64,000 bases of DNA from a virus. The notes under the pieces were generated by a model. That model was not told where the DNA came from and did no database searches. It was given only the letters and a program-made list of their open reading frames with translations. Location of the stretch: the UHGV virus genome UHGV-1374526. One strand, given 5' to 3'. Shown here piece by piece: positions 2,826-61,882 of this stretch. A program made the translations under genes and the position numbers. Positions within the stretch are counted from its first letter, which is position 1; each line of letters opens with the position of its first letter.

Positions 2826-2854
2826 TTGACAATCCTTCGCCCCTGTCCTACTGT
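2826..2854 (+). promoter_or_regulatory. Sigma70-type promoter TTGACA-N17-TACTGT
   Basis: -35 at 2826-2831 and -10 at 2849-2854. The first ATG (2866) is ~5 nt beyond the predicted TSS. Confidence 0.5.
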
Positions 2855-2865
2855 GTGCTCGGCCC

Positions 2866-3849
2866 ATGTGGCGGCCATTATTATCACAAACCAAAACGAA
2901 CATGCAAATAAATTATACCAATGACATGCAGAAGAGAGGGGCATTCCACCTCTTCCTCCTGAACGAAGTCCTCTACAACATGGGAGAAAGTTATGCCAGC
3001 CCGAAGGTACTTGCTCCCGTCTACTTGCAGGAACTGCTCATTCATGGATTGCTTACTCCCACAAAGAAACACCCCGCGAAGCGGAGGACGTTGGGAGAGG
3101 TCTCCTATCAGCACCGGGCACTCTTTGAGCGATTGAACAGGGTGAAAGATACGGGCTACCTCAATCCAATAGCGGAGGACATTCCCTTCCATCGAGACAC
3201 CTTGTACGGTCCCATGACCTCGATGGAACAATTCGAAACCACCGACACGGTGACGAAAATAACTCCCGAACTGCCCGAATCCCTTAACGTCCTCATCTCG
3301 CTTGTGCTTCTCAACGGCGCACCTGTAACCGAGGAATACATCACACAGCGGGCGAAAGGACCGGAGGGTAATCTGGACTTCGACTTCCGCTGGTTCAGTG
3401 CCATGTTCCTCACGTCCTGCCCCTATGGCCGTGAGCCTCGCTACTGTCTCTCCCAAGTGGGCATGGACTTTGGCTGGAAGGTATATGACTATGTTCTTGA
3501 CCACTATGAGCATGTGCCTAATGCCAGCTATTGGAGAACGAAGTTGCCAGCTACGGAATTGGGGTCTCCTTTCACTCTCAACCCCAACCCGGCTCCGGGG
3601 TTCCAATATAAACACAGCTTCATTATCCTTAGTCTCCTTGGTGACTTTATGGATGTCTCGCGCATAACGAAGTCCGACCTTGTTCGCATCCTTCAGCTCC
3701 CCGGCGGTGAGCGTAGCGTAGAGAATGCGCTCTCCGAGCTGACGTCCGAAGGTTTTGCCGAGTATGATGAAGAGACGCGTACCTATGCTCTCACCCACCT
3801 CGGCGCAGTCATGTATGGCCTATACGCTACCCGCATCATGGAAATCTAA
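2866..3849 (+). CDS. Hypothetical early protein; a C-terminal DNA-binding-like region is possible
   Basis: A 327-aa ORF sits directly downstream of the promoter. The overlapping antisense ORF 2884-3798 was rejected from context. The start could also be the internal Met at 2902. Confidence 0.45.
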   Translation: MWRPLLSQTKTNMQINYTNDMQKRGAFHLFLLNEVLYNMGESYASPKVLAPVYLQELLIHGLLTPTKKHPAKRRTLGEVSYQHRALFERLNRVKDTGYLNPIAEDIPFHRDTLYGPMTSMEQFETTDTVTKITPELPESLNVLISLVLLNGAPVTEEYITQRAKGPEGNLDFDFRWFSAMFLTSCPYGREPRYCLSQVGMDFGWKVYDYVLDHYEHVPNASYWRTKLPATELGSPFTLNPNPAPGFQYKHSFIILSLLGDFMDVSRITKSDLVRILQLPGGERSVENALSELTSEGFAEYDEETRTYALTHLGAVMYGLYATRIMEI

Positions 3850-3862
3850 TCTCTTACCTCGA

Positions 3863-6752: not shown

Positions 6753-6780
6753 TTGACAAAAATCTAATCTTTGATACATT
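6753..6780 (+). promoter_or_regulatory. Sigma70-type promoter TTGACA-N16-TACATT
   Basis: It sits in the 6734-6856 intergenic gap. Confidence 0.5.
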
Positions 6781-6856
6781 GGCCTCGTCACCGGGATTCC
6801 GGGGCGGGGCCAATCCCGTTCCGCTAATCCCCTCGAATACAACTAAGCAAACAAGC

Positions 6857-7246
6857 ATGACTACGACAACCGACGACAACATGATTACCGAGTTGAAAGC
6901 TCTTGAATCCGAGCTTCGCTCACAGGTGGAAAAAGCCGAAGCGGAATTGAAGTCCCTTCGCAATAATCACAACCGCATTGTCAAGCTAATCAATCTCCTT
7001 GATGGTCTTGGCAACTTGATGAAGAATACGCACGTTACCACGGTTGCGGATTCCCCTCGCCCCGGCTATAGCAAGAATGGCAAGAAGCTGGGCCGCCCGT
7101 CCAATGAACGTCTCGCCAACTTGAAGGCGCAGAACCAGAACCTCCGCGAACGGTATGAACTTAGCCAGAAGCGTGACCAGCTGAACAAGTGCATTGATAG
7201 CCTCGACTGGATTATCGACTTGCAGGAAGAAGAAGGTGAATACTAA
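6857..7246 (+). CDS. Hypothetical coiled-coil protein
   Basis: ORF in the rightward gene train. Its first in-frame ATG lies downstream of the promoter (the ORF-track start at 6779 is TTG). The sequence is heptad-like (ELKALESELRSQVEKAEAELKSL). Confidence 0.4.
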   Translation: MTTTTDDNMITELKALESELRSQVEKAEAELKSLRNNHNRIVKLINLLDGLGNLMKNTHVTTVADSPRPGYSKNGKKLGRPSNERLANLKAQNQNLRERYELSQKRDQLNKCIDSLDWIIDLQEEEGEY

Positions 7247-12718: not shown

Positions 12719-12746
12719 TTGACATTTCACGAACTTGTGATATAGT
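12719..12746 (+). promoter_or_regulatory. Sigma70-type promoter TTGACA-N16-TATAGT
   Basis: It lies immediately after the nuclease stop codon, ~75 nt upstream of the next ATG. Confidence 0.55.
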
Positions 12747-12822
12747 CGCGTCAGAGAAGTTACCGAGGGTAGTTCACTCACCAAAGAAGCCCTCAACCCA
12801 AAACCAAGAATAAACGAATACT

Positions 12823-13590
12823 ATGGCTACTAAGAAAACAGAACACGAAACCTTGGGAATAGACCCGGGAGACGCATTGGAACTGGGAACCCCGGAACCC
12901 AATCAACTCGCAACCGCTACGGAATACCACTCTTTCGAGGGTGAGACCGACGCTTCGGACATTCAGATTCCCTACCTCAAACTGTGGCAAGCCTCTTGCG
13001 ATGAGGCTAAACTGGAAGAACCGATTGGCAGTTTGGGTGCGTTCCTTCTCAACGGTCTGGTCGTTGCCGAGCGCAATAATCCTCTTGAATGTATCGTATT
13101 GAAGGCTCGTAAGTTCTTCCGCGAATACATCCCGTACAACGAACGTCAGCCCGGCGTATATGCCAAGACGTGGAATACGAAGGAAGAGTATGAAGCAGAA
13201 GGATTTGACAAGTCGCAGGTCAACCGTGCCCTTGCCATGTGGCTACTGGTTAAGAAGCCGCAGGGTATTAAGGACGCAAGTACCACCGAGGATGACCTTG
13301 ACGCTCTCTTCACCATTGACTTCATGGGCGACCAGTGGACGCTGGCACGCTACACCCCGGAAGGTAATCAGTACACGGGCGTTGGTGCTCCCTTCATTCA
13401 GTTCATGATGTTGAAGGGGAACAAGCTCGGCTCCCTGCCCTTCCGTGTGCAGATTGGTGCACAACGCGCCGTCTCCCGCGACGGGAAGAACAGCTACGCC
13501 AAAGCGTTCCTCAAGTTCAAACCGCACCCGGTGGAAGGTCAGGTTGAAGCCATCCAAGAGATGGGCCTCCTTTCCGCGGTAACTAAGTAA
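12823..13590 (+). CDS. Hypothetical protein; by position it could be an ssDNA-annealing or SSB-type recombination partner
   Basis: A 255-aa ORF between the nuclease and the RuvC-like resolvase. No diagnostic motif was recognised. Confidence 0.4.
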   Translation: MATKKTEHETLGIDPGDALELGTPEPNQLATATEYHSFEGETDASDIQIPYLKLWQASCDEAKLEEPIGSLGAFLLNGLVVAERNNPLECIVLKARKFFREYIPYNERQPGVYAKTWNTKEEYEAEGFDKSQVNRALAMWLLVKKPQGIKDASTTEDDLDALFTIDFMGDQWTLARYTPEGNQYTGVGAPFIQFMMLKGNKLGSLPFRVQIGAQRAVSRDGKNSYAKAFLKFKPHPVEGQVEAIQEMGLLSAVTK

Positions 13591-13701
13591 CCCCCTCCCG
13601 GCCCTGACGGGTTTATCCCGTAGCACCGCATTGCGGGTAAAAAAGGGGCACGTTCTATTCGGCCATCATAGTACGCTATGGTGGCCGTCTTATTTTTGTG
13701 C

Positions 13702-13730
13702 TTGACCTTCTGGACTTTGTGGGATATATT
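13702..13730 (+). promoter_or_regulatory. Sigma70-type promoter TTGACC-N17-TATATT ending 5 nt before the ATG (leaderless)
   Basis: -35 at 13702-13707 and -10 at 13725-13730, with the ATG at 13736. Confidence 0.45.
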
Positions 13731-13735
13731 CTCCT

Positions 13736-14251
13736 ATGCAACTAGTAGGAGTTGACCCCGGAACCCACGGAGCCCTTGTACTCGCGGACACCCGGAGCAA
13801 GAAAATCTGGATAAAGCACATGCCAGAAGACGAAAGGGAACTGGAAATCATATTGAACAAACTGCCACGTAGCCGTCATCGTATCATGTACATTGAGAAG
13901 ATGAGCTATGCCATGAGCGGAGGCGGCAAGGTGTCCAATCCGAGAAGTAGTGGCGTATTGGGAGAGGCAACCGGGAAGGTCCTCGGTTACGCCGCGGCGG
14001 CGGGGTACACCGTCACAAAGGTTTCCCCAATCGTATGGATGCGGGCTATGGGCGCGTATGATACGGGCCTGACTGCCCGGGACCGCACGAAGTGGAAGAA
14101 CAACCTGAAACGCATCGCGATGGAGAACTTCCCCGGCGCGAAGGTGACATTGCAGAACGCGGACGCTCTTCTCATTCTATTGTACGCGTACCGGGAACTG
14201 AACGACGACCACACACTGACCCTCGACAACTGGGATATAGAAAGAATCTGA
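13736..14251 (+). CDS. RuvC-like Holliday junction resolvase
   Basis: N-terminal MQLVGVDPGTHGALVL matches the RuvC ...G(I/V)DPG motif. Later acidic residues are present. The size (171 aa) fits. Confidence 0.6.
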   Translation: MQLVGVDPGTHGALVLADTRSKKIWIKHMPEDERELEIILNKLPRSRHRIMYIEKMSYAMSGGGKVSNPRSSGVLGEATGKVLGYAAAAGYTVTKVSPIVWMRAMGAYDTGLTARDRTKWKNNLKRIAMENFPGAKVTLQNADALLILLYAYRELNDDHTLTLDNWDIERI

Positions 14252-14252
14252 A

Positions 14253-16091
14253 ATGGCACGACACTTTACCCGCTACGGACGACAATGGGAGTACGGAGTA
14301 TCAGAGCTTGACATCGAACTCTGGTGCTTCAAATACGCATGGCCCGAAGAGAAGGGAGGGCTGGGCAGGTATGGACACGCTAAGAACGCCATCAATCTCC
14401 TGTGGAATTACAAGGGCAGTCCTACTCCCATTATCTGGACGCCGTGGATTGAACGGATGATTGAAACCGCGTGCAAATATGATGTGGTCATCATGGGTGG
14501 AGGCTCGTCCTCTGGGAAGTCATTATCTATGGCTATCATGGCGACGCTCTTCTATCTGGCCGACCCCGTCGATACCCTTTGCCTAGTCACATCGACTACT
14601 ATTGAAGGTGCGAAGAAACGTATCTTCAAGGATATTAAACGGTTGTGGCGCAAGGAATTTCCGGGCAAGCTCGTTGATGGCAAGGGACAGATTAAAGGCG
14701 TGAACGAGGACGGAGATATTGACGATTCCCGCGGCATCTCCATTATCCCCTGCGCGAACGTCGGCGACCCCAGTAGCCGATTTATCGGTATTAAGGCAAA
14801 GAACATGCACGTCTTTTACGACGAGCTTTCCGAATTGCCGATTGAACTCGTCGAGGTGTGGCGTACCAACCTCATCACCAACAGAGCGGACACGCCTCCT
14901 ACCCTGATGGCCGCCTCTAACCCCAAGAGCCGCACCGATGCCTTTGGTGTTATGGCTATGCCCAAGGATGGGTGGAACAGCGTTGACATCTTTGAGGAAT
15001 ACGAGTGGGAGACCAAGGACGGGATTTACATCCGCTTCGACAACACCCAGAACCCCCGCATCAAATATGGCCGCGAGGATTGGAGCTTCTACACCCCGTT
15101 GGACATCGTTCAGCAAACGATTGAACAATATGGGGAGAATAGTCCGTTCGTGATGCGGTTCCACCGGGCAACCTTTTCAGACGATACGGAAGAAGGTTCA
15201 CTAATGTCGGAGGCTGAAATTTACGGCAGTGGCGCGGATGCCATGCCCGTCTGGGGAGACGGCGAGTTGATTACCATCGCAGGATTGGACCCTGCCTACA
15301 CCAACGGCGGGGACCAGTCATGTTTGAAGCTCGCCAAAGTCGGACGAACGGTTGAAGGGCTTTGGGCGTGCGCGGTGTTCCGTACCTATTTGTTGAAGTC
15401 TACGTCCGACAAGGAACGGATGAAGCAAAGGAACTTCGACATCGCCCAGCAAGTTGGAGAGATTCTCCGGGCCAACGGGGTTGAAAGTAAGTACCTTGCC
15501 GTAGACGTAACCGGAGGTACTGGTTTCATCGACATCCTCGCCCAGCATGTCGGCACGGACTTCCAGACGGTCAGCTTCGCGGGTATGGCGAGCAAAGTGC
15601 CCATTGGCCTGTTGCAGAATCAGGAGGCATGCCAGCAATATAGCAACAAGGTCTCCGAGCTTTGGGGATGTATGAAACTGGCAATCAATGCTCGCCAACT
15701 TTATGGCCTCGACCCGACAACTATCGTCGAGCTTAAATCCCGGCTCTACACCATGAACGGAACCCGAATTGCCGTGGAACCCAAGGCGGCCATGAAGAAA
15801 CGGATTCATAAATCCCCGGACAACGCGGACGCACTAGCACTTCTCGTCCACGTGTGCCGGGGAATCATGGGACCGGAGTTCGGTAAGATTAGGCTTGACA
15901 TTCAGAACCATAAGGTGGTAGAACATCAAGAGGTAATCAAATATCGCGAAGACGGAACCGCATATATTGAAGCCGCAGACATTGGCAGGTATCTCGGAGG
16001 CTTCGTCGGAGGCAATGCCCCCGCTCCCGCTCCTGCCCGCGACACCTTTGCCTCCGACGTAACCGCCGCAATGAACATGCTATGGACCTAA
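14253..16091 (+). CDS. Terminase large subunit
   Basis: Walker A VVIMGGGSSSGKSLS followed by an ATPase and nuclease-domain-sized ORF (612 aa). It sits at the head of the morphogenesis block. Confidence 0.75.
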   Translation: MARHFTRYGRQWEYGVSELDIELWCFKYAWPEEKGGLGRYGHAKNAINLLWNYKGSPTPIIWTPWIERMIETACKYDVVIMGGGSSSGKSLSMAIMATLFYLADPVDTLCLVTSTTIEGAKKRIFKDIKRLWRKEFPGKLVDGKGQIKGVNEDGDIDDSRGISIIPCANVGDPSSRFIGIKAKNMHVFYDELSELPIELVEVWRTNLITNRADTPPTLMAASNPKSRTDAFGVMAMPKDGWNSVDIFEEYEWETKDGIYIRFDNTQNPRIKYGREDWSFYTPLDIVQQTIEQYGENSPFVMRFHRATFSDDTEEGSLMSEAEIYGSGADAMPVWGDGELITIAGLDPAYTNGGDQSCLKLAKVGRTVEGLWACAVFRTYLLKSTSDKERMKQRNFDIAQQVGEILRANGVESKYLAVDVTGGTGFIDILAQHVGTDFQTVSFAGMASKVPIGLLQNQEACQQYSNKVSELWGCMKLAINARQLYGLDPTTIVELKSRLYTMNGTRIAVEPKAAMKKRIHKSPDNADALALLVHVCRGIMGPEFGKIRLDIQNHKVVEHQEVIKYREDGTAYIEAADIGRYLGGFVGGNAPAPAPARDTFASDVTAAMNMLWT

Positions 16092-16743: not shown

Positions 16744-16771
16744 TTGACAACGTCGTCCATTCGCGTATAGT
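16744..16771 (+). promoter_or_regulatory. Sigma70-type promoter TTGACA-N16-TATAGT ending 6 nt before the ATG (leaderless)
   Basis: -10 at 16766-16771 and the ATG at 16778. Confidence 0.5.
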
Positions 16772-16777
16772 GGGGCC

Positions 16778-45999: not shown

Positions 46000-46030
46000 A
46001 TTTGACATAATACATATTTCACTTGACCCT

Positions 46031-46073
46031 CGCCCCACTCATGATAGGATGTTGAAGACCCACATGAGTGGGG
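46031..46073. promoter_or_regulatory. Perfect 12-bp inverted repeat GCCCCACTCATG-N19-CATGAGTGGGGC upstream of the giant gene
   Basis: Direct reading. There is no adjacent T-run, so it is not a classic terminator. TTGACA/TTGACC hexamers at 46002-46028 lack a convincing -10. Confidence 0.5.
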
Positions 46074-46102
46074 CAAACTTATTATACTAATACTCAACAA
46101 AC

Positions 46103-49100
46103 ATGGCTATTGACTTTAGTACCGCCAATATGTCCGACTTCACTCCGAAGTCGGGAAGCAGTATTGCACGTGAACAGCGAGCCGCAGAAAGGCACGCCGC
46201 GTGGCAAGAGACGCAAGCGCAGAAACAGCAGGACCGAGAACAGAAAGCACTGGACCGCGAGCAAAGGTTAGCGGAAAAGAAACAGACCCGTGCCGAGAAG
46301 GGAGCGACGGCGACCGCAGACTATGACACCTTCCTCTTTAAGTCTGTTGATGACTTTGCGGAGAAACAGAAAAAGGATGCGGAACACGCAAATAATGTAG
46401 AATGGCAAAATAAATCCCGCGCCCATACGGAACAAGAATGGAAAACCGCCGAGGAAAATAAAGCCCTCGACATCTTGAACAAAGGAAACCGTGGGTACAG
46501 CTTTGAGGGAATCGACTACATGAAAGACTATGTAGACCGCGGGGAAGATGCGCTGGTCGATTTGAAGGCCGCTTCCCGCGGTGATAGCGAGGCCATTAAG
46601 AAGCTTGCCAACAATACGGGACTTACCGTTGTGTCTTCTTCCGAGCTTACGCCTACGCACCCCACCTTCTTATCCCGCTCTGGCTTCGGAAGTGGAGAGG
46701 ACGGGAACCCCGTCGTAACGGAAAAGTTCCTCGCCATTGCCGCGGACAGAAACCGTAACGCAAAGGCGGTTGCCAAAGGCATTGCCAACACAATGGAAAA
46801 GGCCCGGAAGGATTACCTCAACTCGAATCTAGATGTTGGAACGGGTAAACCTACGGCGCAAGCCATCGAGACCGCACCTATTGCTTACACCGCAGAAGAA
46901 ATAGAAAGCGTCATCAATACGATTAGGCGCGAAGACATTGGCAACTATCGTGCCGCTAAGGCTCTTTACGACAAACACCGCTCTTCTTCGACGGAAGGCG
47001 TGCAGAAGAAAACCCCCAGCCAAACGAGCGTGGGGGAGCTTGGCGTTGGCGAATTCTCTGATTCAGCACCTTCATTTACTGGGAATGTTTTTGCTGAACT
47101 CGCCAACCTTTCCAAGTCTCCCAGCAAAATGTTCCAGCTTGTCCGCGACTACGGGGATTACCTTTCCCGGAGTACGGAAGATATTGAATCCCCGGAATCT
47201 GCTACAGCGGATGCGAAACAACTCCATACAGACCAAGCAAAACTCATTTCAAAAAAAGAAAAACCTGTTGAGGATAGGATTCGTGAACAGATAGAAACAG
47301 CCGACAAAATCGTAAGACGCCTCGAAGAGGACTACACTGGCCTTCCCTATCTCGAACTTCGCGACGCGCTTCTCAATCCAGAGGCCGCGGCCTCTGCCCT
47401 TCTGTCTTTAGTCCCCGGTGCTGACATGGACGCAATACGTGCACGGGCAAAGGTCATTACCGAGGAAGTTCGCCGCCAGAAGGACCGCCCTCTGACCGTC
47501 GAAAACCCCGAACAGATTGGCATGAGTGAGGCTATACTGGAAGCCGTGGCCACAAGGTTTCCGGGGGTTCCAAAATCTGCCCTGCGCCAAGCGGGAGTAA
47601 CCAAACTGATTCAGGACTATACCGCCAAAGCCACGCCGAAAGGCACTCTCATGGATGCAGTCAAAGGCGCACTGGCTAACTACCGAAGCACGGCGGGACA
47701 AATTGCGGACGTACTTACCTTCCAACCGGATAATAGTGTGGGTAAGTACGCCGACCCAATGAGCTTGATGGAATGGAGGAAGGGAACGAGGCGTGGCTCA
47801 TGGTGGTATGGCATGCCGGGCGGCCCGTCCTTTGAAGTCGGACCGGAGAGGTTGAAGGAATACATGGCCCAGTACCATATTGAAAGTACTCGCGATGCCC
47901 TCAACTCCCTCTCCCATGCCGCACGTATGGGTGACTTGGGCGTTGGCCGTGGCAGTCTCTTTGCGTACAATCCGCACACCAAGGAAGTTGATACGAACGC
48001 CACGCTCGAACTGAATCCCAATGCTCTCTACAATGATAAGCTGATGGACCAGAGCATTGAGGCTCTCCGTGCTAGTGGCGCGGACGAGAAGCTTATCAAT
48101 CGCACCATTGAGAAGTTCCAGAACCTCCGCAAGAAATCCGCACAGGAACTTGTGAAGGACAACATGGCATTGGACGAGACGCTGGGGACGCTTCGCGATA
48201 CGTGGCTTGGCTCCGGCTTGCAGTTCAACCCTGTCTTGACTGAATCCATGAAGCATCTGGACAAGTACCTTTCCTTCAAGAATTTCTACAACGAACAGAA
48301 GGAAGCGGGCAAGAGCGACGAGGACATCCTCTCCGCATGGCAGGAGAAAGGGCAAGCCACCTTCGATTCTGTTCTCCGTGGGTTACAGATAGGTACACAC
48401 AAGGCAATCGACCTTGGGACAAGTACCGCCTATGGTGCTCTTCTCTTTGCACAGAATGCAGTTGGCAGTCGTGCGGCGATGGAACATACCCGCACCCTCT
48501 GGGACCAGCTGAACAAAAAACAGGAAGCAGAAGCCGAGTTGGTTCGAGGCAATATCCTTGCGGACTATACTGCGGAAATCGCTAACCTCGGCTACCAAAT
48601 GGTAGCAACCGCGGGGGCTGGTAAAGTTGGTGGCCTCGCTGGCCGTGCACTGACACGTACCGCGCTCAATAAATTCATGAAGGCAACGGCTAACGTCGTA
48701 GCGAAGCGGGCCGAAGCTCTTGTCCCTGCCGCCCGTCCGGGATTGGCGGGACGTTTGAGTGGAACTATTCAGCGCAACCTCGACAACCTTGCGGCGTTGA
48801 ACCTCGAACGGGCAGGAGCCGGAGCCGGGGTAAATCTTAGCATCATCTCGCAGGTTGCACCGAATGCTTACTCCGACATCTTCTATACCATTTATGATAG
48901 GGAGATGGAAGGGAAGGAACCGACTGCCGAGAACACGAACAGGGCACAGAGCATTGCCAACATGCGTGCTCTCTTTGGTGCGGCTCTCGTATCTACTGGT
49001 AGTACTCTCATCAACAACCGCGCAGGTATGGATTCCTTCATGCGTAAGATTGTTGGGGCTAAAAACCTTCGCGGTCAATCTCCATTCCAAACTCTTGAAC

Positions 49101-52100
49101 GGAAGATGGCCGGATGGAGAAGCAAGCCATTTAAGGAGATGAACACGAAGGAAAAGACGTTTGCCGTTGCTTCCTATCTGTACAGCCAGAGCAAGGCCGT
49201 AGTGGAAGGAGCCACCGAAGAACTGGCAGACGAATTCCAAGAGTGGGCGTTTACCGAACTGGTGAAGAACGGAGAAATCTCCGAATCCTCTATTGCCACT
49301 ACTGACCAAGTGATTAGCACAGGCATGAAGATTGCTTTCCTCGGAGGTATCGGCGGCTACGTTGGTAGCCACTTAGCTGGTGAAGGGAACATACGTTTCC
49401 AAACCGAAGCCGCTCCCACTCTCGATGTAAAGGATGCTACTTCCATGCTACCGGATATTACGAAAGATGCGAGCAACATCATCGAGGAAACGGGCAAAGC
49501 CATTACCAAAAACAATGTGCCGGAAAGCTTGGTAGAAACCGGAAAGAAGGTTATCGAGATTGCCGGGGAGAAGGGAGATGCCGCGGAAGTTGCCCGCGAA
49601 TGGGTGGACAAATCCATTGCCCATGAAAGTCTGGCAGTCTCCGATGAAACCCGCAAGGCGTGGGTGGAAGGAGCAACCCGTATGGGCATCAGCAACTTCA
49701 CCCAGTTCCGCAACCTAGTGGAACGGGCCTCCGAAATATATACCTATGAGGGCAGTGCCGCGGCAAGCTCATTCATGGCAGAAGCCATTAACGACCTGCC
49801 CAATACCCTGTCATTCCCAAATAAGGAAAACCTCGACACCATGCGCACCATGCTTTCGGAGGCCCTTGATGCTATGGGAGACCGGGTTCAGGTTATCGAA
49901 GTAGACGACGACCTGTCCATCATTACTACAGGGGACGAGGACCTTGATGCCGCCATTAACGTTATTAACGGATTGACGGAAGCCGCGGCTACCACGGAAC
50001 CCAAGGAATCCCCGGCTACCGCGGAACCCACGGAATCCCCGGTAGCTATTGCCCGGAAGGAGAGGGACAATGCTATTGCCCCCATCACTGCTATGGTAGA
50101 GACGGGAGTAGTTACCCCAGAAGCTACCGCTTCCGTGGATAACATGGATGCGGCAATCACCTCGTTCGACCCCAACACCGGGGCATGGCTCTCATCCGGT
50201 TCACCTCTGGACCGCGGCGCGAAGCTCGTCTCCCTGAACGAGATGACCGGGATTAACGCCCCCATGATTACCAGCAACACGGGAGAAACCGTTGTCATCG
50301 CTCCGCACGCAAGCATGTACAACACAGGTGAGGGAGGGACACCCAGCACCAAGTGGGGGGACAAGGTCTCCGCTCTCAATCTCCCGACGGATGGGACTGG
50401 CGCAAATGCCTACGGCACGCTTCGCGGCCTTCAAGTTAATGCCTCCCCCGCACAGGCCGCGGCCATTGATGGAGTGCTCCGCGCACTGCATGCCGCTGGT
50501 TTGGACGTCGCTATCCGTGCAACCAATGCCCCGGCGAACATCTCTTCCCCTGCCAGTATCACCTACATGAACGGCACGGACGGGAAGCTTGTCGGCGGTG
50601 TCATTGACCTGTACGTGAACCGGGATAACCCGATTGAAAGCGTAACGGGAACGGTACTACACGAAGTCATCCACCTCATTGACCGTCATCTTCGTACCAC
50701 CAACACGGACTATTCCCAGCGGATGGATAGGATTAGAAGCGCGATTGCAGAGAACTACAACAACATTGTCGATAGTCTCTCCGCTATGTATGACGCTAGC
50801 GTGGACATCAATGAGATGAACGCCATCGCCGCGCTCGCTTCCGACCTCAACTACGGTCTCCGCGGTGCGGACGAATTTGCCAGTGTCGCGTTCTCCAATC
50901 CTGTCATGAACTTCATGGTAGCGGAAGCTAGCGGAGACAATATCACCATCACGGATTTGGCTCGCTATGCCGAAGCGGCGGGAGGCCGGAAGCCCGTGCA
51001 CGTGCGCCTCGTCGAATGGCTTAAAGATTTGATTAGGGACATCAAAGATACTGCGGACGATATGGACGGAACCACCGCCGCAGAACGCGTGGCTGAATGG
51101 GATTCCTATGTGGCCCGCGTCGCGGACATGACCCCCGGCAAGTGGTTCGATATGCCTCGCACTCCGTCATGGAAAGTAGATGATACGGATTATACTATGG
51201 GCAACGGGGTAGATTATTTTAACCCGATGGCCTATGAGACCGACATGACCCGGAGATTGTCCTTCGGCCTTGGCGCAGAAATCATTGGCACGAAGGCCGG
51301 GAACTGGGTAACTAGTATTAAGAACGTATGGCAAGGCGTGTCTAAGGGCTTGGACAAAGCAGGCATCAATGTTAAGTCCGAGGAACAGAAGCTGGTTGTG
51401 CTGGAACAAATGGCCAATGTTAATGCGGCGTATGAACGCAGTATTAAACGCATTGACAAAATTGGTGATATGCTTCAACGCCGTGCGGATAATCTGGGCT
51501 GGGATGCCGCTACGCGAAAGAAATGGAGCAAGTCCATTCTTGACATGTCGGGGAATATGGACAACGATATTGACCCTGAAACTGTTGCACGCATTAACGC
51601 AGAGGCTCAAGCAGAAGTTCGTCAGCATGAACAGACCCGCGACTTCCGTATCGCGTTGGCTAAGAAGACTGTCACCGATGCCGTCAATAGGCACGCGGAA
51701 GCGGTGCGTCTGGCTAACTCCCTTGCGCTTAATAGTGAAGGGCGATTGGAAATCAACGACATGATGCGCCGGATTAAAGACATGAGCGGCAAGGGATATG
51801 GAGCCATGCTGGACAAGCAGGTAGCTCTCCCCATGCTCTCCCAGCAGATTCACAAATCTCTCTCCGACCTTGGCTCTCGTATCTCCGCGACGGGGGATGC
51901 CAATCTGGATATCACCTACTTTGGCCTTGCCCGCGACACGCAAAACTATCTCGCGGATATGATTAACGAAGTGGATAGTCCCTTCTCTATGGATGAACTT
52001 CTGGACAGGTGGTCCAACCTTCGCAATGACTTCCTCTATGCGGAGAGTACAAACCATCCCGTCATCGCTCCTATGATTCAGGACATCGCTAAGGCACGGG

Positions 52101-55100
52101 CCGAAGCTAAACAAATCATCCGGGAAGCCAATGATGATTTCCACGCCGCAACAAAGAGGGCAGGTGTAACTCGCGCTGGCGTAGCTACCCCTGCTGGTTC
52201 CGTGTGGCTGAAACGAGACAACGCTATCCTCAATGCTCGCCGTCAAAAACAAGCGGAGTATATGGCTAAGCGGGATGCCGCTGAACAGTGGCTTCTGTCA
52301 CAAGGAGTTGTAGGCCAACTGGTCCACAATGTCATCGCCGATTCCCGTAAAGAAATTGCCGCAACGCAAATCTCTATTGCCAAGCTCATTGGAGATAGCC
52401 GTATGGCTGACAACGCCGCGGAGATGAATTATCTTCATCGCACCTACATGGCCGTTGGACGCCATGCCGGAGACTTCACCCGGACGATGAAGGACATCAT
52501 CGCAAACCCCAACGGAGAACTGGCGCAGAAATACGATGGTCTGACGAAACTGTTGCAGGAAGCCGCAATCTCTCATGCCGAAGCGCACCAGAGAGAACTA
52601 TCCGAAAACGTAAGCCAAGTGCTGGACAACATGCAGGCATTGGCCGCGCTCCACGACGAGTTGAAACTTCCGCTGGTGTCAGCTCCCACGGGAGCCTCTT
52701 CGAATTATAAACTCCTGTTCGAAGGTGTAGCCAAGAACTACAGGACCAGAGAAATTCTTGACTTCATTCAGAACAACTTCGGTCAGGTTCAAATGCTTGC
52801 GGACTTGAGGGACGGCCACAACATCAGTGCCATATATAATAAGGCCATGAGCATGATAGCACAGGCAGACTATCGCACGAAGTCAAAGATGACAGAGAGG
52901 AAGGAAACTCTGGACATGAATGCCAGAGATAGTTTCCTCGCTGATGTCTTCTCCAGCCTTCCGGGAAAAACGATTGCGGACAAAATCGGCAGTCTTCAAT
53001 CCCCGGCATCCGTGGCTTCCGAAGTGAACAAGGCCATCCCCACTATCCCGACTTCGGCCATTGACCAGATATGGAACACGCCTAATATGAATGCCGCAGA
53101 ACGACTGGACAAGACGCTCAATCTTCTTCGCGGTCAGGCTGGCGTTCTCATGAGGATGAACGGCATGGGCAACGTCATCTCCGCTACCGACTTGAAAGCG
53201 TTGCAATATCCGGAACTCTCCCGTCTTGCGGTGAACGATGCCATGAAGGCCATTGACGAAGTACTGTCCAAGAAGAGGACGAATGAAGATGCGCTGGCCC
53301 AGCGGAAACGCTTGCCCGAATGGCAGAGGAAAGCTATGTATGAACTTAGCGACCTCACCATTGGGGATGCCATTGGGACGTTACAGAATACCCTATCCAT
53401 GCAGTCGAAGATTGCCGTGAACCAGTTGCTTGCTGACGAGTATACCTCCGTACTGAAAGCGCAGGGTGTGGTCGTACCCCCGAATTCCACGAACCGTACT
53501 TCGGACATGGTGGAAATCTCCTTGAAGAATACGAAGAATGCGTTGAACGGAATGTACGCCGACAAGGATGTAGCCGATGCCATCTACCGCATCTACAGGC
53601 CGAGCGACGACATCCTGAATAGCAGGACGGACGACTATAAGGAGGTCCGCGAGTACTGGCAGAAGTCCGGCAAGGGGCAAGGATGGTGGAGTAAGGCGGG
53701 TGGCTTGGCTAACCTTTCTGTCTTAATAGCGAGTCCTAATTCCACGTTACGTAACTTATATGGTACAGTAGCTCAAATGACCCATGCGGGTGCACTTCCA
53801 TTCACGGGGAGTAAAGAAATCGCAAAGCTTATCGGAGATTGGAGCCAGATGTATAAACTGCGGAAGTTGTCCCGCGGTAAAGACCTTGCTTCACAGGCTT
53901 CCGCGGATAGACTGCTGGCCGCGGAAGACAGGTACAACGAGAAGATTCGCTACTGGCAAGAGCTTGGTCTGCTGGACGCAGGTCAAGGGGAGTTCCTGCG
54001 CAACGTCTGGAAGTCTGACGAGTTCAGTAAGATGGCAGGAGAATTTGAAGAAGTGAATGAGGATTCCTTCTTCAAACTGGCCGAAGCTCTGAACGAGAAA
54101 CAGGAACGGACGAAGGGCGAGGTGGCTAAGGATGTCGCCAAGACGGCGGGCAAAGTCGTAGCATGGCCCATCAAAACGATGTCCTTCGCCTATGGCTTGC
54201 CGGACGCGGCGGCCAAGATTGCTCTCTTCACTAACCAGAGAGCGATTGCCGATACCCAATTAAAGGTACAACTGGCACGGGCGAAAGGCAAGGCCAACCC
54301 CAATGCACGGGACCAGATACTCCTTGACGCGAGCCAGACTACCCAGAGTTGGGATGCTTATGTGGACAGGTATACTGCCAACATGGTGAAGAGCTTGCTC
54401 CCCACGGGTTCGCGTACTCCTTCGTGGGTGAAAACCCTGAATATAGTTGCGGCTCCGTTCTTCATGTTCCAGTACCATACCTTCCAGTCTGTAGCCTACA
54501 ACCTTGGCCACGCCATAGGTGAAGGGGTAGACGGTGTGTGGGCTATCAATAACGGCATGAAGAAGGAGGGGGCTTACCTCTTGGGACGCGCTATCCTTCG
54601 CATCGCTGGTTCCGCAGTAACTATTGGTGCAACCTCTGCGGTCTCTTCCTGGGTTGCCCGACAGATTATCGCCAGTGTCTTGGGAGATGACGATGACCAT
54701 AAAATCATTGACGACGCGGAAGTCATGAGGAAGCTGGCAGATAGTGGGCTAATTCCTGACTATGATAAGTTCGGGGACTTGATTGGCATCATAGATATGA
54801 AGCGACATGAGTTCGAGTATTTGACCCTTGAATACATGAACCCGTTCAAGACCATCAGGGTGTTAGCCAAACCCCTGCCCAGCCTCTTCATGGATATGGA
54901 TGTGGACAAGTGGGGGATGAACAAGGTTGCCGAACTGAAAAACCTGCTGGAAAATACGGTGCTTGAAGAATCCCTCCTTCTGAACACAGCTACTGAATTG
55001 TTTAATGAGGAAGACTTCAATTACAAGCATAGCCTCTCCGGTGATGAAAGCGTCAACGTTCTCCCGGCAGTCGGCAACGCAATCCTGTTGGCCGCAGGGC

Positions 55101-55798
55101 TGAACCCCTCGTTCGGCAGTGGACACACGTGGCAAGCCCTTGAACGTGTCGCGACGGTTGCCAATAAAAAGATTCCCGTCTACGGCTGGTTAGTCAAGTC
55201 TGGTAAACAAATGTTTAGTGATACGCCCGACATGAGTGCCGAGGCATACGGGTTACAGACCTTTGGTACTGGTCTCCGTCGTCCGAAGGATTTGACCGAA
55301 GCCCTTGCCGCCGGGTTAAAGAATGCCAACGCGGCAGTCACTAAGTCGAAGCGAATGAGCGTCCTTCGTCCGGACTTCTACAAGAGAATGGAATCCGGGG
55401 TGGATGTGGAATCTATGGAAGCCGTGGAAACCGCGGATGCCGTGAAGAATTTCACCAAGCTAGTCAATAGTGTCCGGTTTGTTACGGAAATTACAAACAT
55501 GCTTGACCCCGCTCTGCGGAAGGAAGTTCTGGCTTCCGCGATTGAGAGTTCCGGTATGAGTGCCAAGACCTACGGCGCGGCCATGAAAGGCATCATGCCC
55601 TACATCATTAGCCCGCAAGCAGGACGTGAGGCTATCGCGAAACTCAACCGCGAATTGCAGAAGTCTAATACCACGGACGAGGGCAAACGCCTAATCGAAG
55701 AGCAGAAGAAACTCATTATCAACCTCATGAGGAAGGGTAGCATTCAGATTGATGGGGCATTGAGTGCGGAGGAAATTCATAATCGGATGAAGCAGTAG
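46103..55798 (+). CDS. Giant virion/ejection protein (3231 aa) with zincin-like HExxH motif
   Basis: It is a single uninterrupted ORF. HEVIH lies within TGTVLHEVIHLIDRH at ~50650-50700. There are long helical regions and Gly/Ala-rich segments, and the gene sits after the tail genes. No polymerase catalytic motif was recognised by eye. Confidence 0.6.
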   Translation: MAIDFSTANMSDFTPKSGSSIAREQRAAERHAAWQETQAQKQQDREQKALDREQRLAEKKQTRAEKGATATADYDTFLFKSVDDFAEKQKKDAEHANNVEWQNKSRAHTEQEWKTAEENKALDILNKGNRGYSFEGIDYMKDYVDRGEDALVDLKAASRGDSEAIKKLANNTGLTVVSSSELTPTHPTFLSRSGFGSGEDGNPVVTEKFLAIAADRNRNAKAVAKGIANTMEKARKDYLNSNLDVGTGKPTAQAIETAPIAYTAEEIESVINTIRREDIGNYRAAKALYDKHRSSSTEGVQKKTPSQTSVGELGVGEFSDSAPSFTGNVFAELANLSKSPSKMFQLVRDYGDYLSRSTEDIESPESATADAKQLHTDQAKLISKKEKPVEDRIREQIETADKIVRRLEEDYTGLPYLELRDALLNPEAAASALLSLVPGADMDAIRARAKVITEEVRRQKDRPLTVENPEQIGMSEAILEAVATRFPGVPKSALRQAGVTKLIQDYTAKATPKGTLMDAVKGALANYRSTAGQIADVLTFQPDNSVGKYADPMSLMEWRKGTRRGSWWYGMPGGPSFEVGPERLKEYMAQYHIESTRDALNSLSHAARMGDLGVGRGSLFAYNPHTKEVDTNATLELNPNALYNDKLMDQSIEALRASGADEKLINRTIEKFQNLRKKSAQELVKDNMALDETLGTLRDTWLGSGLQFNPVLTESMKHLDKYLSFKNFYNEQKEAGKSDEDILSAWQEKGQATFDSVLRGLQIGTHKAIDLGTSTAYGALLFAQNAVGSRAAMEHTRTLWDQLNKKQEAEAELVRGNILADYTAEIANLGYQMVATAGAGKVGGLAGRALTRTALNKFMKATANVVAKRAEALVPAARPGLAGRLSGTIQRNLDNLAALNLERAGAGAGVNLSIISQVAPNAYSDIFYTIYDREMEGKEPTAENTNRAQSIANMRALFGAALVSTGSTLINNRAGMDSFMRKIVGAKNLRGQSPFQTLERKMAGWRSKPFKEMNTKEKTFAVASYLYSQSKAVVEGATEELADEFQEWAFTELVKNGEISESSIATTDQVISTGMKIAFLGGIGGYVGSHLAGEGNIRFQTEAAPTLDVKDATSMLPDITKDASNIIEETGKAITKNNVPESLVETGKKVIEIAGEKGDAAEVAREWVDKSIAHESLAVSDETRKAWVEGATRMGISNFTQFRNLVERASEIYTYEGSAAASSFMAEAINDLPNTLSFPNKENLDTMRTMLSEALDAMGDRVQVIEVDDDLSIITTGDEDLDAAINVINGLTEAAATTEPKESPATAEPTESPVAIARKERDNAIAPITAMVETGVVTPEATASVDNMDAAITSFDPNTGAWLSSGSPLDRGAKLVSLNEMTGINAPMITSNTGETVVIAPHASMYNTGEGGTPSTKWGDKVSALNLPTDGTGANAYGTLRGLQVNASPAQAAAIDGVLRALHAAGLDVAIRATNAPANISSPASITYMNGTDGKLVGGVIDLYVNRDNPIESVTGTVLHEVIHLIDRHLRTTNTDYSQRMDRIRSAIAENYNNIVDSLSAMYDASVDINEMNAIAALASDLNYGLRGADEFASVAFSNPVMNFMVAEASGDNITITDLARYAEAAGGRKPVHVRLVEWLKDLIRDIKDTADDMDGTTAAERVAEWDSYVARVADMTPGKWFDMPRTPSWKVDDTDYTMGNGVDYFNPMAYETDMTRRLSFGLGAEIIGTKAGNWVTSIKNVWQGVSKGLDKAGINVKSEEQKLVVLEQMANVNAAYERSIKRIDKIGDMLQRRADNLGWDAATRKKWSKSILDMSGNMDNDIDPETVARINAEAQAEVRQHEQTRDFRIALAKKTVTDAVNRHAEAVRLANSLALNSEGRLEINDMMRRIKDMSGKGYGAMLDKQVALPMLSQQIHKSLSDLGSRISATGDANLDITYFGLARDTQNYLADMINEVDSPFSMDELLDRWSNLRNDFLYAESTNHPVIAPMIQDIAKARAEAKQIIREANDDFHAATKRAGVTRAGVATPAGSVWLKRDNAILNARRQKQAEYMAKRDAAEQWLLSQGVVGQLVHNVIADSRKEIAATQISIAKLIGDSRMADNAAEMNYLHRTYMAVGRHAGDFTRTMKDIIANPNGELAQKYDGLTKLLQEAAISHAEAHQRELSENVSQVLDNMQALAALHDELKLPLVSAPTGASSNYKLLFEGVAKNYRTREILDFIQNNFGQVQMLADLRDGHNISAIYNKAMSMIAQADYRTKSKMTERKETLDMNARDSFLADVFSSLPGKTIADKIGSLQSPASVASEVNKAIPTIPTSAIDQIWNTPNMNAAERLDKTLNLLRGQAGVLMRMNGMGNVISATDLKALQYPELSRLAVNDAMKAIDEVLSKKRTNEDALAQRKRLPEWQRKAMYELSDLTIGDAIGTLQNTLSMQSKIAVNQLLADEYTSVLKAQGVVVPPNSTNRTSDMVEISLKNTKNALNGMYADKDVADAIYRIYRPSDDILNSRTDDYKEVREYWQKSGKGQGWWSKAGGLANLSVLIASPNSTLRNLYGTVAQMTHAGALPFTGSKEIAKLIGDWSQMYKLRKLSRGKDLASQASADRLLAAEDRYNEKIRYWQELGLLDAGQGEFLRNVWKSDEFSKMAGEFEEVNEDSFFKLAEALNEKQERTKGEVAKDVAKTAGKVVAWPIKTMSFAYGLPDAAAKIALFTNQRAIADTQLKVQLARAKGKANPNARDQILLDASQTTQSWDAYVDRYTANMVKSLLPTGSRTPSWVKTLNIVAAPFFMFQYHTFQSVAYNLGHAIGEGVDGVWAINNGMKKEGAYLLGRAILRIAGSAVTIGATSAVSSWVARQIIASVLGDDDDHKIIDDAEVMRKLADSGLIPDYDKFGDLIGIIDMKRHEFEYLTLEYMNPFKTIRVLAKPLPSLFMDMDVDKWGMNKVAELKNLLENTVLEESLLLNTATELFNEEDFNYKHSLSGDESVNVLPAVGNAILLAAGLNPSFGSGHTWQALERVATVANKKIPVYGWLVKSGKQMFSDTPDMSAEAYGLQTFGTGLRRPKDLTEALAAGLKNANAAVTKSKRMSVLRPDFYKRMESGVDVESMEAVETADAVKNFTKLVNSVRFVTEITNMLDPALRKEVLASAIESSGMSAKTYGAAMKGIMPYIISPQAGREAIAKLNRELQKSNTTDEGKRLIEEQKKLIINLMRKGSIQIDGALSAEEIHNRMKQ

Positions 55799-55814: not shown

Positions 55815-55843
55815 TTGACCTTCGGGGGCATGGGAGATATAAT
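55815..55843 (+). promoter_or_regulatory. Consensus sigma70 promoter TTGACC-N17-TATAAT whose -10 is flanked by a perfect 12-bp inverted repeat GGGCATGGGAGA / TCTCCCATGCCC (55826-55855); leaderless ATG at 55850
   Basis: Direct reading. The start codon lies inside the right arm. Confidence 0.55.
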
Positions 55844-55849
55844 TCTCCC

Positions 55850-56455
55850 ATGCCCTCTTTTCGTATAGTACCCAATCATATCATGGCCACCCCTCCGGGA
55901 GGCTGGAAGTTTATTGTCCCTGAATCCATGAGTGTCAGGCTCAAGGGAACCAAGGTTTCCGCGGGTTCACTGGAACAACTCCGCAAGGCGGTCGCCCGTC
56001 TCTTCATGAATAACGGAGAACCCTTTCAGGTTGCGCTCTTTGAATCAGAGCTTTGCGCTTCTCTCCCTCCCCAGTACTGCACCACCTGCGGTGATAAGGG
56101 AATTGAATGGAAGGAGTATGAACCCATGAGTGCCAAGAAGATATTGGCCTTCTTCGGTACTATGGTTCTCTGGTATCGACGGGGACACAGGTTTGTAGAC
56201 GAGGCAGAAGCTCGCCGCCGCTATGCTATCTGCGCCTCCTGTCCGTATGCTACCTCTACGCCTCCCCCGGATTTAGAGAAGCAAGGGTGCGCCACATGTG
56301 GAGCCGAAGGAGCTGGCCGCAAATTCCTCAAGGAAAAAATCTCCGGGCTTGCGGACCTGACCAACGGGAAGGCCCCTCTCTATTGTACCTTATGTGGTTG
56401 CGACCTATCAGTAAAGGCTCACTTCGATATTGAATCTGACTGCTGGCTAAAATAG
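55850..56455 (+). CDS. Cys-rich hypothetical protein (CTTCGD, CASCPY, CATCG, CTLCGC)
   Basis: A 201-aa ORF with several CxxC pairs. Confidence 0.45.
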   Translation: MPSFRIVPNHIMATPPGGWKFIVPESMSVRLKGTKVSAGSLEQLRKAVARLFMNNGEPFQVALFESELCASLPPQYCTTCGDKGIEWKEYEPMSAKKILAFFGTMVLWYRRGHRFVDEAEARRRYAICASCPYATSTPPPDLEKQGCATCGAEGAGRKFLKEKISGLADLTNGKAPLYCTLCGCDLSVKAHFDIESDCWLK

Positions 56456-56458: not shown

Positions 56459-56486
56459 TTGACATTATTTCAAGTTGATACATACT
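56459..56486 (+). promoter_or_regulatory. Sigma70-type promoter TTGACA-N16-CATACT (near-leaderless; ATG at 56496)
   Basis: Direct reading. The -10 is imperfect. Confidence 0.4.
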
Positions 56487-56495
56487 TCCCTCCGT

Positions 56496-56855
56496 ATGAA
56501 CTCAATATTCACAGCAGAAGAAGCTAGCAAGCTCCCCCTGTATAAGGGATGCACGGTGTTCATTAACGTACATTGCGGTGGCATGCCCACAGTGAGAGCC
56601 GTTGAAGTATCTGATGTCGCCTTCGAATGTTTCGTTTCTCGTGTCAGAATCGAATACATCAACCACCGATTCAGAACCACAGATAATGGCTATCTCAACC
56701 ACACTGTCTTCCTCACCTATCAGGACGCGGCCAAGCATGCGTGCCACGATTACGTCGAAGAGATAGAGAGGCTCGAACAACTACTCGAAACCAAAAAGAA
56801 AAAGCTCGCCGAACTGATGGCGAGCATTGAGAAAAACGAAGTTCCTGTCAGTTAG
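56496..56855 (+). CDS. Hypothetical protein
   Basis: The start was moved to the first ATG downstream of the promoter. The C-terminus is coiled-coil. Confidence 0.4.
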   Translation: MNSIFTAEEASKLPLYKGCTVFINVHCGGMPTVRAVEVSDVAFECFVSRVRIEYINHRFRTTDNGYLNHTVFLTYQDAAKHACHDYVEEIERLEQLLETKKKKLAELMASIEKNEVPVS

Positions 56856-60989: not shown

Positions 60990-61298
60990 TTACCTATCTC
61001 CATTGTCGTCTTCCTTTCTGACTGGAATAATACCTTCACTAATGAGATTGTCAAGTTCTTTCTCTACTATCTTGTGACAATCTGAAGGAGGCATAAGTAC
61101 AAACTCCAATAAGGTAACATACTCCATCCTCAAAGGGACTGTGTTATACTCGCTAGCTTTCTTCACTAAATTCTTACAGATTGTCCGAATAATTTTCCGT
61201 ACAAGTTTACGATATTTCTCCTGTTCTCTAGTCATTTCCATTGCTTTATGCTTCGTGGGGCAGAATAATTTTACGGGTGTTAGCTTCCTTCTCGGCAA
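60990..61298 (-). CDS. Hypothetical small protein
   Basis: A 102-aa ORF. Confidence 0.35.
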   Translation of the reverse strand: MPRRKLTPVKLFCPTKHKAMEMTREQEKYRKLVRKIIRTICKNLVKKASEYNTVPLRMEYVTLLEFVLMPPSDCHKIVEKELDNLISEGIIPVRKEDDNGDR

Positions 61299-61845
61299 GC
61301 TCCGACTTATCTACGAAGGTAAGAGTGGATTGTTCCAATAGGTTCATGGAAATTACATTGCTCGCCACGGAGAAGAGACGGAATGCGGAGATGCCTCCCT
61401 TCTCTTCATCAATGCGGTCCGGGTCGTTCTGACTGGCATACGCTACCAAGAGGTGAATGGCCATGAAGAGGACGAGTGCCTTAATCATGACGTGGGAATC
61501 TGTAAAGATATTGCACGCCTTGCCGGGGTTCTCAAGCTCCTGCATAAAGGCAATGTATTCCTTTACAGTGACGAGGTTCTCGGCGACTTCTGCCATGATG
61601 AACTGAACTCCCGCCAACGGCGGGGGTTCAATATCAAAGATGTTGGAGGCGTAGTCCCCCAGTTCAAGAGCCTTCTCGGCAACCGCCTCCGCGGGCGCGT
61701 CGATGGGCAGGTTGAAGGCAGGGACTGCATCCCACTCCCGTTGCAGTCTTTCCTTCAACATGATAGACTTCGGTTCGGTGAGAATGCGGGCTACCTCTTC
61801 CTGAATATTATCAAGGCTCAATTCGTTTGGTTCTGTGGTATTCAT
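61246..61845 (-). CDS. Hypothetical protein
   Basis: A 199-aa ORF. A sigma70-type promoter lies immediately upstream (leaderless). Confidence 0.4.
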   Translation of the reverse strand: MNTTEPNELSLDNIQEEVARILTEPKSIMLKERLQREWDAVPAFNLPIDAPAEAVAEKALELGDYASNIFDIEPPPLAGVQFIMAEVAENLVTVKEYIAFMQELENPGKACNIFTDSHVMIKALVLFMAIHLLVAYASQNDPDRIDEEKGGISAFRLFSVASNVISMNLLEQSTLTFVDKSELAEKEANTRKIILPHEA

Positions 61846-61854
61846 GTGGGGATA

Positions 61855-61882
61855 ATAGTATCTGGGTTTTATTACTTGTCAA
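61855..61882 (-). promoter_or_regulatory. Sigma70-type promoter on the minus strand (TTGACA-N16-TACTAT) ~3 nt upstream of the start of gene 61246-61845
   Basis: The reverse complement of 61850-61883 reads cttgacaagtaataaaacccagatactattatcc. Confidence 0.45.

Follow-up and report, generated by a model that had tools for sequence, protein, structure and literature searches.

RpoD-type promoters abut start codons in an uncultivated gut phage that is depleted of Shine-Dalgarno sequences and probably infects Akkermansia

Results

Organization of the UHGV-1374526 window and its promoter-ATG units

The 64,000-nucleotide (nt) stretch of UHGV virus genome UHGV-1374526 analysed here (the window) appears to be most of the genome, ~70 kb in all, of an uncultivated, virulent-looking double-stranded DNA phage, in which several genes begin with an ATG placed directly behind a sigma70-type promoter and Shine-Dalgarno (SD) sequences are under-represented upstream of gene starts. 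The window has a GC content of ~51% and is densely packed with roughly 64 genes; those between ~2.9 and 56.9 kb form a plus-strand run, and those between 57 and 63.9 kb a minus-strand block. Recognised genes code for a primase/helicase, a family A DNA polymerase, a helicase, and an exonuclease, and further recognised genes include those for a large terminase, a RuvC-like resolvase, an HNH-like protein, ThyX, and an NAD-dependent ligase (Table 1). We found no tRNA genes in the window, and a scan of it with Rfam at gathering thresholds found no family.

There is no cultured relative to act as a guide, since tblastn of the window terminase against 50,697 GenBank phage records gives no match, and the best identity of the window DNA polymerase to GenBank phage records is 27%. 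IMG/VR holds 39 loci with terminases 57-100% identical to that of the window, and a protein search with a 715-amino-acid (aa) open reading frame (ORF) recovers more than 1000 near-identical phage copies; the phage family is common in metagenomes. The contigs carrying these homologues reach ~71 kb at most, from which we take the genome size of ~70 kb. None of the more than 1000 homologues of the 715-aa ORF is a chromosomal match, and no integrated copy was seen among them.

An earlier note on this DNA had listed eight genes in which a -10 hexamer ends 3-9 nt before the ATG. We find that all eight promoter-abutted starts exist, each having cTTGAC(A/C), a spacer of 16-17 nt, TAnnnT (CATACT in the unit beginning at 56459), a short G/C-rich stretch, and an ATG that opens a real gene (Table 1). 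The distance from the end of the -10 element to the ATG spans 5-11 nt at these sites; the range given earlier is correct for seven of the eight (5-9 nt) and not for the gene at 2866 (11 nt). A ninth unit lies at 35926, where the -10 hexamer includes the stop codon of the upstream gene. The start codon is ATG in all nine units. In the unit at 35246, two additional in-frame ATGs (35234 and 35237) fall within the -10 hexamer itself.

Table 1. Promoter-ATG units, leadered promoters, and other features of the window. Gap, distance from the end of the -10 element to the ATG; leader, predicted untranslated length.
Feature	Position	Strand	-35	Spacer (nt)	-10	Gap or leader (nt)	ATG	Product or remark
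Promoter-ATG unit	13702-13738	+	TTGACC (13702-13707)	17	TATATT (13725-13730)	gap 5	13736	171 aa, RuvC-like resolvase
Promoter-ATG unit	16744-16780	+	TTGACA	16	TATAGT (16766-16771)	gap 6	16778	254 aa, HNH-like
Promoter-ATG unit	28256-28292	+	TTGACA	16	TATGGT (28278-28283)	gap 6	28290	195 aa
Promoter-ATG unit	35211-35248	+	TTGACC	16	TATGAT (35233-35238)	gap 7	35246	221 aa
Promoter-ATG unit	55815-55857	+	TTGACC	17	TATAAT (55838-55843)	gap 6	55850	201 aa
Near-leaderless unit	56459-56498	+	TTGACA	16	CATACT (56481-56486)	gap 9; leader 0-2	56496	119 aa
Near-leaderless unit	61843-61882	-	TTGACA (61882-61877)	16	TACTAT (61860-61855)	gap 9	61845	199 aa
Promoter-ATG unit, weakest	2826-2868	+	TTGACA	17	TACTGT (2849-2854)	gap 11; leader 4-5	2866	327 aa
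Promoter-ATG unit, newly found	35886-35928	+	TTGACA	17	TAATCT (35909-35914)	gap 11	35926	149 aa
Leadered promoter	6753-6859	+	TTGACA	16	TGnTACATT	leader ~76	6857	promoter 6753-6780; structured leader
Leadered promoter	12719-12825	+	TTGACA	16	TGnTATAGT	leader ~70	12823	promoter 12719-12746
Leadered promoter	22743-22947	+	cTTGACA		poor	leader ~170	22945	418 aa, presumed major capsid protein
Leadered promoter	from 37486	+					37530	
Leadered promoter	from 40336	+					40390	
Leadered promoter	46023-46105	+	TTGACC	16	TAGGAT		46103	3231-aa gene
Leadered promoter	61001-61054	-	TTGACA	16	TATTAT	leader ~17	61003 (first in frame)	promoter 61054-61027; NAD-dependent DNA ligase
Sole canonical SD-like sequence	21178-21192	+					21190	GGGAGGT, 5 nt (gcacg) before ATG; duplex -11.5 kcal/mol
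Large terminase	14253-16091							
3231-aa ORF	46103-55798	+						no Pfam domain; N-terminal 500 aa 39-99% identical among relatives

According to published work, bacterial leaderless genes have a Pribnow box 6-8 nt away from the start codon, and the first T of its TAnnnT falls near position -12. The genes at 13736, 16778, 28290, 55850, and 35246 have -10 boxes ending 5, 6, 6, 6, and 7 nt before the ATG, respectively, and for -10 elements ending 5-7 nt before the ATG we infer that transcription begins at the A of that ATG. The units also resemble bacterial leaderless genes in being placed first in a transcription unit and in having a conserved arrangement. Intrinsic terminators are present directly 5' of the units at 13736 (13660-13687), 28290 (28211-28235), and 55850 (55824-55857), as expected at the start of a transcription unit.

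Promoters of this form are strongly over-represented in the window. There are 17 occurrences of cTTGAC-N17/18-TAnnnT, compared with 0.74 expected from shuffles (12 versus 0.30 with N17, and 5 versus 0.44 with N18), and a looser promoter definition yields 45 sites versus 21 ± 5 in shuffles. With TTGACA and TATAAT-like hexamers separated by 16-18 nt that are enriched, intergenic, and conserved, these have the character of sigma70 (RpoD)-type promoters. Among 57 confidently placed gene starts, eight have a promoter 4-12 nt upstream, compared with four of 2403 other ATGs (odds ratio ~98, p=2e-11), and only ~14% of genes are abutted in this way.

Conservation of the units and assignment of translation starts

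Comparison with relatives having 55-100% identical orthologues shows that the -35 element, the -10 element, and the distance from the -10 to the ATG are kept, while the spacer and discriminator drift. At 13736, both hexamers and the 5-nt gap are retained in relatives with 72-100% protein identity as the spacer changes (examples of the sequences upstream of the orthologues are cttgaccttctggactttgtgggatatattctcctATG, cttgactagtagggatttatccagtatagtctgtcATG, and cttgaccccctcctgtttcttcggtatattcccgaATG). The unit at 16778 retains TTGACA, TATAnT, and a gap of 6-7 nt in relatives down to 55% identity, the gap being 6 nt in most and 7 nt in L021 and L029; a distant clade with 57% terminase identity (L036 and L037) has units of this type too, among them TTGACA-16-TATTTT-6-ATG at the syntenic position. 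The unit at 28290 is kept in every relative whose protein can be aligned from residue 1, that at 56496 is kept with a gap of 7 nt in one variant, that at 61845 is kept in relatives at 92-99% identity, and the newly found unit at 35926 retains TTGACA and TAAT(C/A)T.

These patterns bear on whether the promoter-abutting ATGs are used at all, or whether the promoters are real and translation begins at a codon farther downstream on leadered mRNAs. This alternative draws on the fact that start codons were assigned from ORFs only, and on the gene at 2866, where the 11-nt gap is atypical and a relative has GTG. It is countered by the fixed distance between -10 and ATG in the face of a varying discriminator, by tblastn alignments with relatives that begin at residue 1, and by the pattern of substitution within the genes. 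We compared the first 20 codons with those of relatives for six genes (13736, 16778, 28290, 35246, 55850, and 61845), and changes are mostly synonymous in four of the six (13736, 35246, 55850, and 61845); in the gene at 55850, for example, the window differs from L099 by 10 synonymous and 3 non-synonymous codon changes. The extreme N termini of the 16778 and 28290 products vary more. The 171-aa product of the gene at 13736, which matches the PHROG Holliday junction resolvase family, starts with MQLVGVDPG, such that the conserved Asp of the DPG motif is residue 7, which we take to be the position of the RuvC catalytic Asp. This early Asp, together with coding-type evolution immediately after the ATGs, leaves little room for a downstream start. 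We therefore regard a downstream start as very unlikely, and the promoter-abutting ATGs, judged from these alignments, as the real starts.

SD sequences and the nature of other start regions

To measure SD usage, we calculated the duplex energy of positions -20 to -1 with the anti-SD sequence (ACCUCCUUU). Mean energies are -1.5 kcal/mol at the 57 starts, -3.0 kcal/mol at random coding positions, and -3.1 kcal/mol at internal ATGs, and energies of -4.5 kcal/mol or lower are reached by a fraction of 0.19 of the starts, compared with 0.27 of random coding positions. SD-like sequences are thus under-represented upstream of starts, and the earlier impression that none are present is borne out, with GGAGG at only one of the 57 starts (21190). 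That SD-like sequence overlaps Leu-Gly-Gly codons at the 3' end of the upstream gene.

The start regions have other features in common. Upstream of the 51 non-leaderless genes the composition is 41% A, 24% C, 21% T, and 14% G, as compared with 27% A and 26% G in coding sequence. Start regions (-25 to +25) have a mean minimum free energy (MFE) of -4.2 kcal/mol, versus -9.5 kcal/mol inside genes (p=1e-17). An A is present at -3 in 25 of the 51 genes (49%) and is also frequent at -6, -7, and -13, and ATG triplets are scarce within ~20 nt of the start, with counts of 6 and 7 versus 23 expected. Of the 52 plus-strand junctions, 35 overlap or are separated by 15 nt or less, so translational coupling is possible. 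The opening ATGGC, which had been described as common, is found in 13 of 60 genes, a fair statement of an unremarkable feature. SD usage at or below chance, A-rich unstructured starts, A at -3, and AUG depletion are together the properties of SD-independent initiation of the Bacteroidia/Verrucomicrobiales type.

Host assignment

Start regions of this type raise the question as to whether the host belongs to the Bacteroidota, which are the best known of the SD-less gut lineages, with the lack of SD sequences reflecting that host and the TTGACA/TAnnnT matches being incidental. SD-independent initiation in Flavobacterium is described as having unstructured starts, A at -3, and AUG depletion (PMC6847099), an A-rich motif lies upstream of starts in Bacteroides (PMC6028130), and many abundant gut phages infect Bacteroides. 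We looked for Bacteroidetes-type promoters in the window and rejected them: the Bacteroidetes -7 motif TAnnTTTG occurs 28 times versus 27.2 expected and has no association with gene starts, which counts against a Bacteroidetes host, the other SD-less gut lineage. Moreover, the sigma70-type motif is >20-fold enriched, intergenic, and conserved, F. johnsoniae transcripts appear to be mostly leadered (PMC6847099), and the sole GenBank phage with DNA similarity to the window infects Akkermansia. A Bacteroidota host is accordingly highly improbable.

We assign the phage, with fair confidence, to Akkermansia (Verrucomicrobiales) as its most likely host. When ~55 kb of the window was compared with GenBank phages by megablast, the only match was to Akkermansia phage Chantilly (ON453895), with 82.6% identity over 919 nt. 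The product of the 715-aa ORF (25614-27761) shares its C-terminal 330 aa, at 75% identity, with the C terminus of a Chantilly protein of 752 aa, and the two proteins have unrelated N-terminal parts; this modular protein, listed together with L132 16440-18698, has a shared C-terminal domain labelled tail-protein-like or receptor-binding-like, and the shared C terminus behind an unrelated N terminus looks like horizontal exchange of a receptor-binding domain between otherwise unrelated phages, for which such a pattern is usual when they share a host. Chantilly is itself SD-depleted (-1.9 versus -3.6 kcal/mol). The 16S rRNA 3' tails of the Akkermansiaceae type keep CCUCC (GGAUCACCUCCUUUCU; ...GAUCACCUCCUUUCU); the 16S primer scan for Akkermansia from which these derive returned mostly rRNA-only or unrelated contigs, and was used only for the anti-SD tail.

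Published observations on the proposed host lineage are in accord with this assignment. A 2024 study (PMC10798248) reports a global lack of SD sequences in Verrucomicrobiales, as in Bacteroidia, SD usage being below chance in all seven of the species considered, and poses the question as to whether the anti-SD of Verrucomicrobiales is occluded. Akkermansia is among the SD-scarce organisms with a conserved CCUCC (PMC10783764). Cappable-seq of the mouse gut microbiota revealed -35 and -10 elements in A. muciniphila, and placed 10% of its transcription starts at annotated start codons, compared with 0.4% in E. coli (PMC4782308). Because both traits are documented for A. muciniphila, the pairing of -35 elements with leaderless or SD-free initiation, which the earlier note considered unusual, is not so for this lineage. 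Its proposal that the host belongs to a lineage with SD-independent initiation and sigma70-type promoters is right; the naming of Akkermansia draws on the domain shared with Chantilly, the lack of Bacteroidetes-type promoters, and the matching host traits. We conclude that the pattern is real but is expected from the probable host.

An alternative view is that the SD-free, leaderless style is the phage's own strategy, resting for example on a translation or transcription factor that the phage encodes, and does not follow host habits. Some phages are reported to encode ribosomal protein bS21 (PMC9723584), which may have a link to SD-less hosts, most window proteins have no recognisable family, leaving room for a hidden factor, and the leaderless share is about half among the strong promoters of the phage, compared with 10% among host transcription starts. 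Nonetheless, Pfam and PHROG scans of ~30 proteins (those of the leaderless genes and ~20 others), with much of 28847-45999 lying outside the scan, detected no domain of a sigma factor, RNA polymerase, bS21, or initiation factor. Chantilly, an unrelated Akkermansia phage, is also SD-depleted, and the host lineage is independently reported to be SD-less and rich in leaderless transcripts. We give little credence to a strategy that is private to the phage.

Leadered promoters and the extent of the leaderless layout

Of the strong promoters, about half belong to leaderless or near-leaderless units, and the others have leaders of roughly 10-170 nt (Table 1); most genes are operon-internal. Leaderless or nearly leaderless genes amount to about nine of the ~64, and head about half of the transcription units, such that the description of a systematic leaderless architecture was an overstatement, with the remaining genes being leadered or operon-internal.

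Some of the leadered promoters have conserved leaders. That of the 12719 promoter is A/C-rich and without an SD sequence, and both promoter and leader are kept in relatives. The presumed capsid gene has a covarying hairpin (22767-22805) directly after its conserved cTTGACA, followed by a TTGCTTTCCCGCGAGCAAA motif, and the TTGACA, hairpin, and TTGCTTTCCCGCGAGCAAA motif are kept down to relatives at 50% identity; these features are suggestive of a leader with attenuation or antitermination control of late genes. The promoter at 37486-37513 precedes, with a leader of ~10 nt, the first of four small paralogues, each of 78-82 aa, arranged in tandem (37530-37766, 37762-37998, 37991-38227, and 38220-38468), and this first paralogue is missing from the 80-aa ORF list.

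Two other regions have promoters or promoter-like matches near the beginning of the window. A strong promoter at 2113 (TTGACA, spacer 16, TGnTATAGT) has no ORF behind it and is followed ~65 nt on by an intrinsic terminator (2113-2215). The predicted two-hairpin RNA has an MFE of -29.2 kcal/mol (z -3.8) and no Rfam match, and is a candidate phage small RNA of ~65 nt in a regulatory region where a divergent minus-strand promoter is present at 1911-1883. At 416-576, near the window start, there are three promoter-like matches on each strand (TTGCTA..TATAAT on the plus strand and GAGACA..TAAAAT on the minus strand) with a spacing of 42 nt. This spacing of promoter matches by itself suggests candidate direct repeats of ~42 bp, and the region may be part of an origin or of a genome-end region.

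Hairpins around -10 elements

At several promoters the -10 element is enclosed by a hairpin. Directly 3' of the 3231-aa gene is a 14-bp terminator-like hairpin (55824-55857) whose loop is the TATAAT -10 of the next unit and whose 3' arm contains the ATG at 55850, with the T-run falling within codons 3-4 of that gene. Across nine sequence variants, compensatory or wobble changes preserve the stem, with energies of -25 to -32 kcal/mol. A second hairpin (46032-46074) has a 12-bp stem around the -10 of the 46023 promoter, with the -35 element just 5' of the stem, and is present in a distant clade (L098-L101) with a wholly different stem sequence; its retention in spite of the sequence difference favours a structural role over a protein operator. 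A comparable arrangement, again with the -35 just 5' of the stem, is found at 25560-25600 (within 25554-25600). Separately, we note a terminator at 24226-24254 (12-bp stem, 10 G-C pairs) after the presumed capsid gene, the loop of which contains the ATG (24238) of the next ORF (99 aa).

A tentative explanation, which we think is rather doubtful at present, is that this phage family builds terminator hairpins around the -10 of the next promoter as a form of insulation, with the leaderless AUG of the gene at 55850 within the 3' arm. The sites involved would be 55824-55857, 46032-46074, and 25560-25600, together with a related form at 22767-22805. Read-through transcripts would either terminate or hold the 55850 AUG base-paired and untranslatable, and transcripts from the embedded promoter, which would lack the 5' arm, would have a free 5'-AUG. 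If so, this would be a compact device that couples translation strictly to promoter-initiated leaderless mRNA, and the conserved SD sequence at 21190 would be a natural probe of anti-SD use by Akkermansia ribosomes.

Discussion

The joint reading that we favour, with a probability of about 0.75, is that the window derives from an Akkermansia-infecting phage that uses host RpoD-type promoters and initiates translation without leaders at some units and without SD sequences elsewhere, in adaptation to the machinery of its host. The host RpoD-type RNA polymerase would transcribe the phage from at least 17 near-consensus promoters with cTTGAC(A/C), a spacer of 16-17 nt, and TAnnnT. At the five units with gaps of 5-7 nt, transcription would begin at the A of the ATG to give a truly leaderless mRNA, and at the four with gaps of 9-11 nt, leaders of 5 nt or less are predicted. 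The ribosome and initiator tRNA would then bind the 5'-terminal AUG directly. For internal and leadered genes, initiation would depend on the accessibility of the start region and on coupling to the preceding gene, and not on SD pairing. Both modes of initiation match the described habits of the host lineage, such that the phage signals can plausibly be viewed as adaptations to the transcription and translation machinery of Akkermansia.

Several observations weigh against parts of this reading. First, the leaderless status of the nine units is deduced from promoter geometry and conservation, and with gaps of 9-11 nt at four of the nine, a leader of 2-5 nt is probable at these instead of none. 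Second, only two relatives were found for the unit at 2866, and the GTG that replaces ATG in one of them agrees poorly with strict leaderless translation. Third, every relative, those of the clade at 60% identity among them, keeps the SD sequence at 21190 in the form (A/G)GGAGGT. Fourth, the host call, made with fair confidence, is built on one shared domain together with signal matching. When species-representative bacterial genomes were scanned with the 715-aa protein, no relative turned up, nor did any prophage link come to light, and matches to a Chantilly-like integrase led to ~10 kb of putative Akkermansia chromosome with ~15 genes, adjoining Chantilly-like prophages, which is too small for a test of promoter geometry.

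The host call (Akkermansia/Verrucomicrobiales), made from sequence alone, applies to an abundant and otherwise unclassifiable family of gut phages. There are also practical consequences. Gene callers that rely on SD sequences will put starts in the wrong place in genomes of this kind (35234, 56475, and 61054 are examples), and the strong, conserved natural promoters with their leaderless or SD-free start regions could serve Akkermansia genetics as expression parts. The understanding of translation initiation is unchanged, in that the phage illustrates what the host lineage already shows.

The phage can be compared with several known systems. Like bacterial leaderless genes (GeneMarkS-2 'group C'; Actinobacteria, Deinococcus, and ~10% of A. 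muciniphila starts), its units have a TAnnnT ending 5-7 nt before the AUG, with no room for a ribosome-binding site, and the genes are first in their transcription units. However, the phage has a near-consensus -35 (cTTGACA), whereas in published logos for the high-GC leaderless lineages TAnnnT predominates and the -35 is weak or missing, and the other phage genes use no SD sequences, whereas internal genes of group C genomes do. With Bacteroidia and Verrucomicrobiales (Baez et al. 2019; Jha et al. 2021; PMC10798248), the phage shares SD usage below chance, A-rich unstructured starts, A at -3, and AUG depletion; these bacteria retain the anti-SD in 16S rRNA. Bacteroidia differ in having TTTG/TAnnTTTG promoters and mostly leadered mRNAs, in contrast to the sigma70-type promoters and frequent leaderless starts of the phage. 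Chantilly resembles the window phage in the shared 330-aa C-terminal domain at 75% identity and in SD depletion, but is a temperate phage of 37 kb with an integrase and is otherwise unrelated; a strict promoter scan of Chantilly gave no cTTGACA-TAnnnT-ATG unit. Finally, the predicted phage units are similar to the classic phage leaderless transcript, the lambda cI mRNA made from PRM, which starts at the A of the AUG and is translated without an SD sequence. In lambda, cI stands alone as a regulatory exception, in a host that uses SD sequences, whereas in the window phage the arrangement recurs across replication, packaging, and unknown-function modules.

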